Translations under genes and position numbers: made by a program | The notes under the pieces: model-generated | What the model was told of the DNA's origin: nothing | The model's database searches: none | What the model saw: the letters and a program-made list of their open reading frames with translations, nothing else | Part shown: in pieces, positions 6,593 to 18,888 of the stretch | Layout: every line of letters starts with the position of its first letter | How positions within the stretch are numbered: position 1 is the first letter of the stretch | NCBI GenBank assembly: GCA_036516595.1 | Contig: DATECE010000090.1 | Coordinates: forward strand, 1-25,816 | From: Minisyncoccota bacterium | GTDB taxonomy: Bacteria; Patescibacteriota; Minisyncoccia; Phycocordibacterales; UBA2100 | Length of the DNA stretch: 25,816 nucleotides | Reading direction: 5' to 3'

Positions 6593-6895
6593 TTATCCGG
6601 CTCGTGACAGCTTGTACAAAATCCGGCACGGTTCGACGATGCGCGGATCCACAATAGCGTAGTATGCATTCAACCCGTCGCGACGAACTGTCACGAGTCG
6701 CTCTCTGCGCAGTATGCCGAGGTGCTGCGATACATTTGCCTTCGAGATTCCCAATGTTTTCACGAGATCCTGTACCGCCATCTCCTGCTCCCGCAGAAGA
6801 TTCAATATCTCGAGGCGCTTCGGGTTCGCCAGTATTTTGTACGTCTCCGCGTTCCTTTCATATGCCGAGCGGGGGAGCGGTCGCTTGATTTTCAT
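6593..6895 (-). CDS. ArsR/SmtB family winged-HTH transcriptional regulator
   Basis: YKILANPKRLEILNLL...VQDLVKTLGISKANVSQHLGILRRERLVTVRRDGLNAYY. Start placed at MKIKRPL (6895). Confidence 0.92.
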   Translation of the reverse strand: MKIKRPLPRSAYERNAETYKILANPKRLEILNLLREQEMAVQDLVKTLGISKANVSQHLGILRRERLVTVRRDGLNAYYAIVDPRIVEPCRILYKLSRAG

Positions 6896-6910
6896 AGTTT
6901 GAGTATGCAC

Positions 6911-7038
6911 TAGTTGCGCATGCGCGCAACCGCTTTTCGCTGAAGCACCGCGGTGACGCGCCCTTGCATCCACACTTTTCCCCACTCGCCGCTTGTGCGG
7001 ACACTCTCGTGCGATATAGTTTCTATATTGCGCAACTA
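6911..7038. promoter_or_regulatory. Divergent promoter region with paired TTGCGC(A)A operator-like sites
   Basis: TAGTTGCGCA (6911-6920) is the exact reverse complement of TGCGCAACTA (7029-7038). Local inverted repeat GTTGCGC-atgc-GCGCAAC at 6913-6930. Candidate -10 boxes are CATACT (minus, 6907-6902) and TATAGT (plus, 7015-7020). Confidence 0.45.
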
Positions 7039-7053
7039 CGAAACAGATAGCGT

Positions 7054-7254
7054 ATGATACAAAAGTCGATAAAGATACTCCGTTACTCTGTCATGTGCAC
7101 GGCTGCGTTCCTTGCATCGTTTGTAGTCAATTTCTCGTCACCCGCGCACAATTCTACGGATATCCCGAGCATGTTCGCGCCTATCGTACATGCCGATGCG
7201 CCGACGGGGGACGGCGGTGATGACGGTGATGGCGGTAGCGACGGTTGTCCCTGA
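7054..7254 (+). CDS. Candidate RiPP precursor peptide 1 (hydrophobic leader, HADAP motif, Gly/Asp/Ser/Cys tail)
   Basis: 66 aa: basic N-terminus, hydrophobic stretch, ...IVHADAP-TGDGGDDGDGGSDGCP. It shares HADAP and overall layout with the 14322-14543 peptide next to the SagB gene. Confidence 0.7.
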   Translation: MIQKSIKILRYSVMCTAAFLASFVVNFSSPAHNSTDIPSMFAPIVHADAPTGDGGDDGDGGSDGCP

Positions 7255-7259
7255 ATTGT

Positions 7260-15670: not shown

Positions 15671-15673
15671 AGC

Positions 15674-16468
15674 ATGAGAATCGGAGCGTACAGCCTGCGG
15701 CAGGTCCTCGCAGTTGTCGCTGTGGGCGCATTTTTGTGTGCCATAGTTTTTCAAAATGCAATTACGCGCCTCTATCAAGACGCGCGTTTTGCCACGGATC
15801 CTTCCGCAGAACGAGCATCTCGTTATGCGGAAGAGGCATTCTCTGCTTTGAACAAAAATGCGTACGACGTAGAGCGCGCACAGTTCTACTACGAAAAAGT
15901 GTACGAGCTAGACCCCACCTACCCGCATGTGAATCACCAGCTCGCCCGCATCAAATTCCTGCAGGGCGACTTTCCGACGGCCTTGATGCACATCGATAGA
16001 GAAATAGAGCTCTATGGCGACGACACCCCAAATTCGTACTATGTCCGCGCGCTCATCAAGGGGTATGAGGGTGATTACGATGGCGCGGCAGACGATTATG
16101 CACACTTTCTCGAATTTCAGCCGGAGAATTGGGCGGCCGTTACCGATCGCTCGTGGGTATTGCTCAAAGCCGGTCGGGCGGCGGAAGCCGCGACACAGAT
16201 TGAGAGAGTGCTCGGCACCTTTCCCGACAACCCGTGGCTTCTCAACACGTACGCAACCGCGCTCTTCGAGACGGGCCGCGTCCAAGAAGCGCTGGTGGTG
16301 ATACGGAAAGCGCATGAGAGTGTGCAGAAGGTGACGGAGACGATGTGGCTCGTCGCGTATCCCGGCAACGATCCCGCCATAGCAGGGCAGGGGCTCGATG
16401 TCTTTCAATCTGCGGTTGAGAGCAATATGCACACGATAGAGCTTCGCGCGGCAGAAGGGGGCTTATAG
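15674..16468 (+). CDS. Tetratricopeptide repeat (TPR) protein with N-terminal membrane anchor/signal
   Basis: Repeats such as AQFYYEKVYELDPTYPHVNHQLARIKFLQGDF, YYVRALIKGYEGDYDGAADDYAHFLEFQP and WLLNTYATALFETGRVQEAL. Confidence 0.88.
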   Translation: MRIGAYSLRQVLAVVAVGAFLCAIVFQNAITRLYQDARFATDPSAERASRYAEEAFSALNKNAYDVERAQFYYEKVYELDPTYPHVNHQLARIKFLQGDFPTALMHIDREIELYGDDTPNSYYVRALIKGYEGDYDGAADDYAHFLEFQPENWAAVTDRSWVLLKAGRAAEAATQIERVLGTFPDNPWLLNTYATALFETGRVQEALVVIRKAHESVQKVTETMWLVAYPGNDPAIAGQGLDVFQSAVESNMHTIELRAAEGGL

Positions 16469-16476
16469 GATGTACA

Positions 16477-18516
16477 ATGAAACAGATGTATCGTCGCGCC
16501 CTGCCGCATGTGCGCACACGTATCGGCCTCGCCGCACTCCTCGTTTTTGCGGTGCTTGCTCTATGGGCGACTGACACTTCGCAGGACAGCGCCTTTCTTT
16601 CGTCTGAGGTGCACTTTGCTGATGCGTCACCCTCGGGCCTCTCCATCGTCCCTGCTTCGTGTCCATCAGATCCGCACCCGCTTACTCCCGGAGATTGCAC
16701 GTGCGCTCTCACCGCTTCCGACTCTGCAATCGTGCGGGGTCAGTCGACAACGCTCAGTTGGACAATAACCGACGCGCACGGTCAATTCATCGCCACCATC
16801 AGCCCAAGTATCGGGACCGTGCCGCAGAGCGGCTCGCGGTCTGTCGCCCCGACGCAAACCACCGTCTACACACTCACGAGCGGCAGCGGATTCTCCTGCG
16901 CGAAGACCGTCGAGGTACGACTGCCGCAATGCACTGGCGGTGGGTTCGCGAATGCGTCGCTATGTGCAAATGACGACCGCAATCTAGAGAGAGACACATC
17001 GACCGTACTCGTGAATGCATGCTCTGAGCGCAAATGCCAGTACCGCTGCGACGTGGGATACAAGAGGGACGGGGCAAGTGGGGGTGACCGGTGTGTCCGC
17101 GATCCGTCGCAGTTCACATGCACTGGCAATCTCCGTGAGAACGCACGCATGTGCAATAACGCCGGCACCAATCTCTCAAGCAACAAAGCCATCACGCTCG
17201 AGGAGAGCTGCACCGCGCCGAATTCCCAAAAATGCGAATCGGTGTGCGAGAGCGGCTTCGTGAAGCAGGGAAACTCCTGTGTGCCCGTGGACAACGATTG
17301 TTCAATCAACGCCGATGACGCGGTCGTCACGTACGGCGGTGCGACGCAACTGCGCTGGACCACCTCTCGCGACACGACCACGGTACGCATCTTGCCGACC
17401 GTCGGCTCCGTGCAATCACCGGGGTCGAAGCGCGTCGAAGGACTTTCTGCGACGACGGAGTTTACGCTTACGGTCCCCAATACACAGATATCTTGCGATG
17501 CGACCGTCCGCGTCTGCGCGCAAGGCGAGAGGATTGTGAATGGCCAGTGTAGAGCGACATGTCTGCCCCCATACATTGATAAGAACGGCGAGTGCATACG
17601 GCCCACCACGACGTACTGCGAGGCGGGTGATCTCGTCGAGCGGTATGACGACAACGGTCAGGAAGTATCCCGCGTTGTCGACCATCCGCAATGTAACAAC
17701 GTGAATGACACGTACACCTCCAAGTGCGAATCTGGCGACCTCGTGAAGCGCAACGACCGTACGGGCGTCGAAGTGAGCCGCATCGTAGATGCGCCCGCCT
17801 GCAACCGCGGTGGAGGCGGCGGAGGCAGCTGCCCCGATACGGACAAGTGCGAGGGGACGAGCATGGTGCGCCGATGTACACAAAACAACAACGAGATTTG
17901 GCGCATCGCAAATCACCCGTCGTGCATTGCATGCCCCGACAGGAACATCTGCGTCGGAAGCACGTACCGTCGTGAGAGCTGCACAGGGGAATTGCTTGAG
18001 ACGCGGGCCTGCGATAGTCGTTGTCCGGCGACAGCGACTGACCCTGCGTGCCGAAGCCAATGCCAGCCACCCCTATACCAATGTGTCGGCGAAAACAACC
18101 GCGATCTGCGCATCACGCGCTACGAAAGTCCAAGCTGCACGGCGCGCACAGAAACGTACCCCTGCGATTACGGATGCAATCCGGATACCCGTCAGTGCTA
18201 CACGGGTGCGCAGCCACCAAGCGTCTCTATCAGTGTCTCTCCATCGCTTGTGCGAAAGGGGCAGACGACGACCGTCAGCTGGCTCGCACGCAACGTTGCA
18301 TCCTGCACGGTGCGCGGTACCAACGACGATGGCGCAGGAGTGAATGCGACAGGTCTCTGGAACTTCACTGCGAGTGCCGGCGTGCTCGAGAGTTCGCGCG
18401 TATCGAGCGCGATACAGACGCGCACCACATACACGCTCTGGTGCATCGCGCAGAACGGCACACGCCCTGAGACCACGGAGACAGTCAACGTGATACCTGA
18501 TTTCGTGGAGGAGTAA
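16477..18516 (+). CDS. Large Cys-rich secreted/surface protein with three Ig-like beta domains and two kinds of Cys repeats
   Basis: N-terminal TM/signal and 44 Cys counted. Ig-like segments GQSTTLSWT, GGATQLRWT and GQTTTVSWL. Internal repeats are visible in the translation. Confidence 0.85.
   Translation: MKQMYRRALPHVRTRIGLAALLVFAVLALWATDTSQDSAFLSSEVHFADASPSGLSIVPASCPSDPHPLTPGDCTCALTASDSAIVRGQSTTLSWTITDAHGQFIATISPSIGTVPQSGSRSVAPTQTTVYTLTSGSGFSCAKTVEVRLPQCTGGGFANASLCANDDRNLERDTSTVLVNACSERKCQYRCDVGYKRDGASGGDRCVRDPSQFTCTGNLRENARMCNNAGTNLSSNKAITLEESCTAPNSQKCESVCESGFVKQGNSCVPVDNDCSINADDAVVTYGGATQLRWTTSRDTTTVRILPTVGSVQSPGSKRVEGLSATTEFTLTVPNTQISCDATVRVCAQGERIVNGQCRATCLPPYIDKNGECIRPTTTYCEAGDLVERYDDNGQEVSRVVDHPQCNNVNDTYTSKCESGDLVKRNDRTGVEVSRIVDAPACNRGGGGGGSCPDTDKCEGTSMVRRCTQNNNEIWRIANHPSCIACPDRNICVGSTYRRESCTGELLETRACDSRCPATATDPACRSQCQPPLYQCVGENNRDLRITRYESPSCTARTETYPCDYGCNPDTRQCYTGAQPPSVSISVSPSLVRKGQTTTVSWLARNVASCTVRGTNDDGAGVNATGLWNFTASAGVLESSRVSSAIQTRTTYTLWCIAQNGTRPETTETVNVIPDFVEE
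17617..17925 (+). repeat. Three 26-aa Cys-bounded repeats inside the surface protein
   Basis: CEAGDLVERYDDNGQEVSRVVDHPQC (17617-17694), CESGDLVKRNDRTGVEVSRIVDAPAC (17725-17802) and CEGTSMVRRCTQNNNEIWRIANHPSC (17848-17925). Confidence 0.75.
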
Positions 18517-18519
18517 GGT

Positions 18520-18888
18520 ATGGTGACACGACGTACATCTTCTCTCTGCCTGCTCGCGCTTGTGACACTCATGCTCTTTGCGTCGCACACGGCACACGCA
18601 GAGACTGACGGATTGCGCGAAGCGGTGCGCGCGGAACTCCTCAAAGACCCGCGTGCATCGGGGATAGCCCCCGCAGATTTTGAAGCGCTGGTGGATGCGC
18701 TCACAGGTGAGGCTGCTGCGCAGAATTGGACGGCAGCCGACCTCTCGTTTGCGGAACAGCCAGCGCCTGAAAACGTTTCCGAGCCGCAGGCAGAAACGTC
18801 TCCCACATGGACGACTATCCTCCTCCTCGCGCTCGCAGCCGCGGCATCACTTGGCGCGCTCCTCTTTGCTCGCAAGCTGAAATTCTAG
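18520..18888 (+). CDS. Small exported protein with signal peptide and C-terminal TM anchor
   Basis: Signal peptide ending TAHA-E and C-terminal WTTILLLALAAAASLGALLFARKLKF. Starts 3 nt after the upstream stop. Confidence 0.75.
   Translation: MVTRRTSSLCLLALVTLMLFASHTAHAETDGLREAVRAELLKDPRASGIAPADFEALVDALTGEAAAQNWTAADLSFAEQPAPENVSEPQAETSPTWTTILLLALAAAASLGALLFARKLKF

Follow-up and report, generated by a model that had tools for sequence, protein, structure and literature searches.

In a 25,816-nucleotide stretch of DNA from a Minisyncoccota bacterium (assembly GCA_036516595.1, contig DATECE010000090.1, positions 1 to 25,816 of the forward strand; hereafter the window), a set of genes that includes a YcaO cyclodehydratase and a SagB-type dehydrogenase lies between the ribosomal protein genes rpsJ and rplC. 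Our best explanation, to which as a whole we give somewhat better than even chances, is that this is an accessory gene island of Kaiserbacteria/Paceibacteria, bounded by rpsJ on one side and, on the other, by a resident gene that lies upstream of rplC, and that it encodes a surface-peptide system to which an azole-forming enzyme pair has been added. The argument draws on gene content, domain identities, conservation, synteny and a link between the composition of peptide tails and the presence of YcaO. The gene map was read with translation table 11 over positions 6034-19653 of the window. The window is contig 90 of a 628-kb genome that is 74% complete. This genome is of the Kaiserbacteria type, a groundwater member of the candidate phyla radiation (CPR), and the relatives of the window genes come from metagenome-assembled genomes named Kaiserbacteria or Paceibacterota, obtained from groundwater and soil.

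The island core is conserved in genomes without YcaO

Related loci were found through one island gene, a fusion of a phosphoribosyltransferase and a beta-propeller (PRTase-propeller). This gave 78 loci with 10-kb flanks, all of which contain that gene by construction, and they were annotated with hidden Markov models built from the window proteins. An unbiased sample of 36 genus-mates offsets the bias of this search. No YcaO was present in 20 of the 78 related loci. Whole-genome PF02624 searches of these 20 detected none in 19 genomes, including the complete 859-kb chromosome CP066682.1, and located a YcaO on another contig in the remaining genome. The 19 YcaO-free genomes keep the peptide, helical partner and PRTase-propeller genes, as well as the genes for a TPR protein, a Cys-rich protein and a 122-aa protein where the contig reaches. 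The YcaO-free set lies between rpsJ and rplC where a contig spans the whole interval.

YcaO and SagB are present in about three quarters of genomes, and almost every YcaO-positive locus has the two genes side by side. Of the 36 genus-mates sampled, 9 have YcaO and 11 the PRTase-propeller, the YcaO-positive set being nested in the PRTase-propeller-positive set. Gains and losses of YcaO on the PRTase-propeller tree amount to at least 13 changes. The conserved core is made up of the genes for the peptide, its TPR-like partner, the PRTase-propeller, the TPR protein and the Cys-rich surface protein. Since this core occurs in 19 related genomes without YcaO, the YcaO/SagB pair is an optional add-on.

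A preliminary description of this DNA had placed an azol(in)e-type gene set between rpsJ and rplC, and every gene that it named was found there. It had taken the set for a pathway resembling those of linear azole-containing peptides (LAPs). This holds for the YcaO and SagB enzymes but not for the island at heart, as the core lives without YcaO in 19 of the 78 loci. The same description had looked to co-conservation of the peptides with YcaO/SagB. Compared across related loci, this link is one-sided: YcaO always occurs with the peptides, which for their part also exist where YcaO is lacking.

The peptides share a membrane helix, a linker and a junction

Both small Gly-Ser/Thr/Cys-tailed peptides reported earlier were found, and both are members of a family of which 61 peptides were used to derive a common layout. 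For this, Ala at -1 and Asp/Glu at +1 were fixed by the search pattern, with the other positions free within broad sets. The layout consists of a basic N-terminus, one hydrophobic helix, a linker (median 21 aa, interquartile range 18-23), a junction and a tail. At the junction, position -3 is Ala/Val in 59/61 peptides, -2 is His in 31/61, +2 is Ala/Val in 49/61 and +3 is Pro in 45/61. The family junction is A-H-A/D-[AV]-P (the slash marks the junction) and the tail of 19-76 aa is rich in Gly, Asp, Ser and Cys. The residues at this junction agree with the -3/-1 rule for type I signal peptidase, but the junction lies farther from the helix than the canonical site and has extra conserved positions. 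The leaders of peptides from YcaO-positive and YcaO-negative genomes showed no difference by eye.

Peptide 1 (66 aa; 7054..7254, + strand) has a basic N-terminus, a hydrophobic helix, a 20-aa linker, the junction IVHA/DAP and a 19-aa tail. The tail (7195-7251) is acidic and Gly/Asp-rich, with one Thr, one Ser and one Cys, and its fraction of Cys, Ser and Thr (C+S+T) is 0.16, like that of YcaO-less genomes. Peptide 2 (73 aa; 14322..14543, + strand) has a hydrophobic helix, a 20-aa linker, the junction TAHA/DAP and a 19-aa tail (14484-14540) with 4 Ser and 3 Thr; its C+S+T of 0.37 resembles that of YcaO-positive genomes. The ATG of peptide 2 overlaps the TGA of SagB (ATGA). Peptide 1 sits 4.7 kb away, beside the PRTase-propeller. 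In both cases exactly 5 nt separate the peptide stop from the start codon (ATG) of a helical-protein gene, and a small ORF of the one peptide family precedes the helical gene in most loci with a readable upstream region.

One related locus carries a variant of this family. In L072 (354-1124, - strand), a family peptide with an anchor, an AFADEV junction and a Gly-rich stretch is fused to a Pretoxin-HINT domain (PF07591, 32.4 bits, cut-off 27.7), after which come ten residues ending in GDGGDCL. This fusion suggests that, in that lineage, the tail undergoes C-terminal processing or is transferred.

An azoline-type YcaO and a SagB-type dehydrogenase

The YcaO cyclodehydratase (509 aa; 11963..13492, - strand) consists of a bare YcaO domain (PF02624, 155 bits) and ends in PWPHPFP. 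The intact ATP-binding motif and C-terminal PHPFP described earlier are borne out: the ATP/Mg-binding residues are intact, residues E145, E148, R149, E262 and P505 are invariant in 50 relatives, and R266 and H506-P507-F508 are nearly invariant in the same set. A PxPxP C-terminal motif has been tied to azoline-forming YcaOs (bioRxiv 10.1101/2025.07.11.664356). The best NCBIfam match was the SagD-type model TIGR03604, at 188 bits and so below its curated cut-off of 219. The thioamidation model TIGR03266 gave 70.5 bits against a cut-off of 365, and TfuA (PF07812) was not found in the genome.

When the family profile was compared with solved structures, TruD, MusD and LynD came first (E 1e-35 to 1e-32). 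An AlphaFold model of the protein (pLDDT 92.4) had LynD as its best Foldseek match (E 5e-21), and VIA-align placed model residues 32-508 on LynD 346-775 and residues 32-494 on the stand-alone M. jannaschii YcaO, both with Z of about 30. Because the VIA alignment covers residue 32 onward, the apparent N-terminal extension is part of the YcaO fold and leaves no room for a fused RRE (recognition element of RiPPs, peptides made by the ribosome and modified after translation). A fused RRE or winged-helix domain at the N-terminus was rejected on these grounds, and an Atlas search with residues 1-105 returned low-scoring unnamed clusters only. In this genome (74% complete), the SagC-type docking protein TIGR03603 was not found. 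There are two ThiF-like ORFs on other contigs, and relatives of neither occur in the 97 loci collected. On sequence grounds we class this YcaO as azoline-type and without a partner.

The SagB-type FMN-dependent azoline dehydrogenase starts at 13537 (TTG) or 13552 (ATG), ends at 14325 on the + strand and is divergently oriented from YcaO. It matches PF00881 and scores 142.5 bits against TIGR03605, for which the cut-off is 78.4. The preliminary description had called this protein a divergent SagB/ThcOx dehydrogenase; the SagB identity stands, but being well above the TIGR03605 cut-off it is not especially divergent. Its relatives in the PDB are 3EO7, CyaGox, BmdC and McbC. The K-Y pair in NQMKYGERGYRY is aligned with W-K-Y of CyaGox, and we take this Lys-Tyr pair to be important in the family. 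Nothing on the motif was found in the literature.

Peptide 2 is the likeliest substrate of YcaO/SagB

Tail composition follows the presence of YcaO. The C+S+T fraction of tails was 0.31 in YcaO-positive and 0.16 in YcaO-negative genomes (Mann-Whitney p 2e-6, uncorrected for kinship), and that of Asp+Glu was 0.17 and 0.27, respectively. Six phylogenetically independent pairs gave, on average, 4.5 in the direction of YcaO, 0.1 in the opposite direction and 1.3 without difference. In genomes with two well-separated peptides, the one beside YcaO/SagB was richer in C+S+T in 4/5 cases, and the window follows this pattern, with the SagB-coupled peptide 2 at 0.37 and peptide 1 at 0.16. Tail composition, the overlap with SagB and the enrichment close to YcaO point to peptide 2 as the likeliest YcaO/SagB substrate. 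The pair probably turns tail Ser/Thr/Cys into azole rings, and in the window it would act mainly on peptide 2.

We infer a most likely mechanism that covers the chemistry and its sequence as well as export and possible cleavage. In the cytoplasm, YcaO with ATP would cyclodehydrate tail Ser/Thr/Cys; in the window its targets would be the 7 Ser/Thr in the peptide 2 tail, perhaps along with the one Thr, one Ser and one Cys in that of peptide 1. SagB with FMN would oxidise the resulting azolines to azoles. The hydrophobic segment would then carry the tail across the membrane. There the tail would stay at the surface, anchored or clipped at AxA/D, together with the TPR-like partner and the other exported proteins. 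Each peptide gene appears to be translationally coupled to its own fast-evolving, membrane-anchored TPR-like protein.

Several observations weigh against this explanation. Most azoline-forming YcaOs need an E1-like, Ocin-ThiF or RRE partner, and none was found in any island ORF by Pfam and NCBIfam scans. The same peptide family and junction occur in genomes without YcaO, and the junction is therefore not a YcaO-specific leader signal. It also lies 15-25 residues past the hydrophobic helix, beyond the canonical signal-peptidase distance. The comparison of independent pairs is underpowered, with a median p of 0.125. The sequencing runs that hold the stretch are all of DNA (groundwater and soil metagenomes), with no RNA runs among them. 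Nor was there support for AHA as the usual signal-peptidase site of the organism: xHA occurs at only 3/102 heuristic sites in the genome, one of them in the 122-aa protein, which has an ordinary signal peptide ending in the same TAHA as peptide 2 but followed by E.

Alternative explanations

The island could instead encode classical secreted bacteriocins, with a Sec-exported, azole-modified toxin cut at AxA/D and a TPR-like neighbour serving as an immunity protein that sequesters the peptide at the producer surface. Peptide and next gene do form one-to-one cassettes that are duplicated together, the partner is fast-evolving (10-32% identity and no invariant residue), and the junction fits the -3/-1 rule, with Ala/Val at -3 in 59/61 peptides. 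The fusion to Pretoxin-HINT (PF07591) in L072 is also in line with a toxin, as is the characterised LAP named in a study of CPR clusters (Sharrar et al. 2020, mBio; PMC7298704), which is an antibiotic against the ribosome. However, the tails in the 19 YcaO-free genomes are plain Gly/Asp/Glu runs and implausible as toxins, and the linker between helix and junction (median 21 aa) is long for signal peptidase I. The other partners, moreover, are surface proteins and a cytoplasmic PRTase, with no exporter or protease among the island genes. We consider a bacteriocin unlikely, though not far-fetched.

YcaO and SagB might also be mere neighbours of the peptides, acting on another substrate or in another YcaO reaction (thioamide, amidine or ATP-dependent cleavage), and the peptides would then be unmodified surface proteins. 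The existence of the peptide system without YcaO agrees with this, as do the missing leader-recognition domain and the score of YcaO below the TIGR03604 cut-off. With its 13 or more changes of state along the PRTase-propeller tree, YcaO also behaves like a mobile add-on. By contrast, YcaO is always beside peptide cassettes in these loci, tail C+S+T doubles with YcaO, and the SagB stop overlaps the peptide 2 start. A SagB-type dehydrogenase is sensible only after azoline formation, and thioamidation is disfavoured by the 70 bits against 365 for TIGR03266 and by TfuA, which was not found in the genome. This makes an unrelated enzyme pair quite improbable.

A role in metal or cation binding at the surface, be it as a metallothionein-like or Ca-binding polyanion or as a chalkophore-like ligand with azoles under ArsR/SmtB control here, is suggested by the Asp/Glu/Gly/Cys-rich tails, the ArsR/SmtB metalloregulator adjoining peptide 1 and the DsbA-like and rhodanese genes that recur in related islands, but it is very doubtful given that ArsR accompanies the island in only 2 loci (the window and 1/78) and that the island has no metal transporter, and as a statement about role it is in any case compatible with the chemistry of a surface-peptide system with an added azole-forming pair.

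The PRTase-propeller is the most conserved island gene

The fusion named in the preliminary description is present at 8523..10268 (- strand). It joins an OPRT-like (orotate phosphoribosyltransferase-like) type I phosphoribosyltransferase to a PQQ/BamB-type beta-propeller (PF13570 160.9 bits, PF13360, PF00156), is cytoplasmic and scores 62.7 bits against TIGR00336. Its flexible-loop residues R120/R123/K124 and its loop for phosphoribosyl pyrophosphate (PRPP), D146-D147-x-x-N150-x-G152, are invariant in 7 relatives. The segments VVLVDDILNSGRS and IRKSRKKSG were aligned to the PRPP and flexible loops of the solved PRTase 2P1Z; the PRPP-loop region was also aligned to the OPRT 2YZK, and the nearest solved structures are OPRTs. 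On these alignments the PRTase-propeller very likely binds PRPP. It is the most conserved gene of the island, at 41-47% identity where YcaOs are at 24-45%, and has 227 relatives in species-representative genomes. No paper was found on the PRTase-propeller, nor on a YcaO with a phosphoribosyltransferase and a propeller.

As a long shot, the PRTase-propeller might use PRPP to phosphoribosylate the exported Gly/Asp tails or the junction, giving a gene-templated, sugar-phosphate-decorated surface polyanion in which azoles are one of several optional decorations. If this were true, phosphoribosylated tails, encoded ribosomally, would take the place of teichoic-acid-like wall polymers in bacteria whose biosynthesis is minimal, and the real novelty might lie in the conserved core rather than in the YcaO add-on.

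Helical partners and other accessory proteins

Two paralogous helical proteins accompany the peptides. Partner 1 (about 405 aa; 7260..8477, + strand) has an N-terminal membrane anchor and a TPR-like solenoid. Its most likely start is the ATG at 7260, because the resulting 5-nt gap after the peptide 1 stop equals the spacing between peptide 2 and partner 2. Partner 2 (373 aa; 14549..15670, + strand) likewise has an N-terminal anchor and a TPR-like solenoid, and its model is all-helical (pLDDT 94.7). The nearest solved folds are the peptide-binding TPR proteins APPBP2, MalT domain III, Rap and PlcR, at Z 12-15, a level close to background where helical repeats are concerned; strong matches in AlphaFold-DB were to unnamed proteins only. 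Identity within the helical family is 10-32% and no residue is invariant in 58 members, which argues for binding rather than catalysis. Partner 2 is probably extracytoplasmic and non-enzymatic. A complex prediction for its ectodomain (36-373) with the soluble part of peptide 2 (30-73) scored 0.01 and carries no weight either way.

Downstream of partner 2 lies a gene for a membrane-anchored TPR protein (264 aa; 15674..16468, + strand) that matches PF14559, PF13431 and other TPR families. It is a conserved island member, with 67 members in the loci and an N-terminal anchor in 59/61. The next gene encodes a membrane-anchored, Cys-rich surface protein of 679 aa (16477..18516, + strand) with a conserved C-terminal domain and no Pfam match. 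Its family has 54 members; an anchor was seen in 45/48. Lys+Arg are in excess N-terminal to the anchor in 35 of them and C-terminal to it in 3, a bias that indicates an exported body. Downstream of YcaO, a second Cys-rich, helical and membrane-anchored protein (411 aa; 10679..11914, - strand) has no Pfam or NCBIfam match. This family is CPR-wide, has 36 members in the loci and an N-terminal anchor, and the Atlas clusters closest to it consist of unnamed Minisyncoccota proteins.

A single N-terminal anchor is present in nearly all members of the helical, TPR and both Cys-rich families, and in each family more members have the Lys+Arg excess on its N-terminal flank than on its C-terminal flank. 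Because of this charge bias the bodies of these proteins are probably outside the cell. Neither YcaO nor SagB has an anchor segment. The topology predicted for five co-conserved proteins is in keeping with export to the cell surface.

Two further genes belong to this stretch. The ArsR/SmtB-family metalloregulator (6593..6985, - strand) matches PF01022 at 58.7 bits and NF033788 at 86.9 bits against a cut-off of 55. A homologue stands with the island in only 2 loci, the window and 1 of the 78 related loci, and ArsR is not a conserved island part. Between the PRTase-propeller and the 411-aa protein gene, a stand-alone gene (10382..10591, + strand) encodes a small basic secreted protein of 69 aa with a signal peptide, 4 Cys and no Pfam family. 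The gene is flanked by a promoter-like site (10295-10323) and a strong terminator-like hairpin (10608-10635), and its product is probably not a substrate. In similar positions, genomes G023 and G036 have unrelated small Cys-containing secreted ORFs.

The ArsR regulator and the membrane-anchored accessory proteins were thus present where the preliminary description had put them. It had also judged the accessory genes to be unlike known LAP clusters, and indeed none of the island genes is an exporter, a protease or an E1/RRE partner. Related loci (L019-L096) hold recurrent genes of other kinds. Two of them were not found in the assembly of this genome, namely a polytopic membrane protein of 441 aa that belongs to no Pfam family (30 loci) and a rhodanese with a membrane anchor (14 loci), and a DsbA-like thioredoxin (15 loci) has here only a distant homologue, on contig 15.

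Island boundaries and neighbouring genes

The left boundary of the island is rpsJ (ribosomal protein S10; 6100..6507, + strand), with 78-87% identity to the rpsJ of genus-mates, and the right boundary is rplC (ribosomal protein L3; 19009..19653, + strand), with 68-75% identity to that of genus-mates. Immediately upstream of rplC, the 122-aa protein gene (18520..18888, + strand) encodes a signal peptide (ending TAHA/ETDG) and a C-terminal anchor. In G002 and G016, two genus-mates that lack the island, the rpsJ-rplC interval contains homologues of this gene. It is for this reason a resident gene and not island cargo, and the island itself extends from ArsR to the gene for the 679-aa protein. The earlier placement of the genes between rpsJ and rplC is hence correct, except for the inclusion of the last gene (18520-18888) in the island. 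In genus-mates without the island, rpsJ and rplC are 0.6-2.3 kb apart. Within the window there was no break in GC content at the island, and direct repeats at its ends did not go beyond chance-level short matches.

In two related loci an extra copy of only the last 19-31 rpsJ codons lies inside the rpsJ-rplC interval. One (L097, G016:C5; about 2089-2145) is in an island-less genus-mate, and in the other (L025; 13274-13369) the partial copy adjoins a helical-protein gene. These copies may be the footprint of recombination at the island boundary. The window has no such repeat.

The gap between the 122-aa gene and rplC contains a promoter-like site at 18902-18930 and, at 18977-18994, a hairpin that resembles a terminator and has a T-run; the rplC operon may have its own regulated leader. 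A 30-bp palindrome, TCCGCCGAAGGCGGATCCGCCTTCGGCGGA, stands in frame within rpsJ (6133-6162), rplC (19213-19242) and rplD (20368-20397), where it encodes GGSAFGG-like inserts in the ribosomal proteins. With at most 4 mismatches it has 10 copies in the genome, on 8 contigs, and the insert is missing from the rpsJ of genus-mate G023. Upstream of rpsJ, positions 1-5676 of the window hold genes for a PKD-domain protein fragment, a bacterial PH-domain membrane protein, a NUDIX hydrolase, a CYTH protein, an M23 peptidase with a peptidoglycan-binding domain and a VIT1-family iron/manganese transporter. None of these genes recurs with the island.

Significance and comparison with known systems

The CPR makes up a large share of bacterial diversity, and almost nothing is known of how its members construct their cell surface or attach to hosts. 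LAP clusters in the CPR are already known, but the precursor type and helper genes described here are in no characterised RiPP pathway. The island is lineage-wide and combines a well-understood ring-forming enzyme pair with unfamiliar precursors. It raises the questions of how an azoline-type YcaO finds its substrate without an RRE partner, and of what a PRPP-using enzyme does to a ribosomal peptide. As the YcaO/SagB pair is optional, a natural knock-out comparison shows which features of the peptides follow the enzymes. Our literature searches found no paper on signal-anchored precursors or the rpsJ-rplC site, and nothing linking Kaiserbacteria with azoles.

Sharrar et al. described 110 LAP clusters with a YcaO and a nitroreductase-type gene in 93 genomes of Parcubacteria and Microgenomates, with YcaO, nitroreductase, peptidase and an 84-aa precursor as cluster genes (PMC7298704). 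The island very likely falls within this set; the sections considered here make no mention of a YcaO-free core, of the PRTase-propeller, of a precursor family with signal anchors or of the site between rpsJ and rplC.

Among individual enzymes, LynD, TruD and MusD are the nearest solved YcaO domains, and the Pro-rich C-terminal end of the island YcaO aligns with that of TruD. The cyanobactin heterocyclases LynD/TruD/PatD and MusD, however, bind the leader through an N-terminal half of about 350 aa with E1-like and RRE parts, whereas the island protein is a YcaO domain only. In this it resembles the YcaOs of M. jannaschii and M. kandleri that act in McrA thioamidation, which are likewise bare and of similar size (VIA Z 29-31). 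Those enzymes make thioamides, whereas the island YcaO is paired with SagB, is far below the TIGR03266 cut-off and comes from a genome where TfuA was not found.

Among the closest known systems are also the LAPs, or thiazole/oxazole-modified microcins (TOMMs), represented by microcin B17 (McbA with McbBCD) and streptolysin S (SagA with SagBCD). They share with the island a YcaO whose C-terminus is of the PxPxP type, an FMN dehydrogenase of the SagB/McbC type, a precursor gene beside the enzymes, and a Gly-rich core in which Ser/Thr/Cys mostly adjoin a Gly. Unlike them, the island has no E1-like C protein, RRE, ABC exporter, immunity gene or leader protease; its "leader" is a signal-anchor-like hydrophobic helix with an AxA/D junction, and its precursors and partners exist without the enzymes in related genomes. 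The island is LAP/TOMM-like at the enzyme level, differs in leader, export and all of its accessory genes, and departs from that class in one defining feature, the E1/Ocin-ThiF partner with its RRE.

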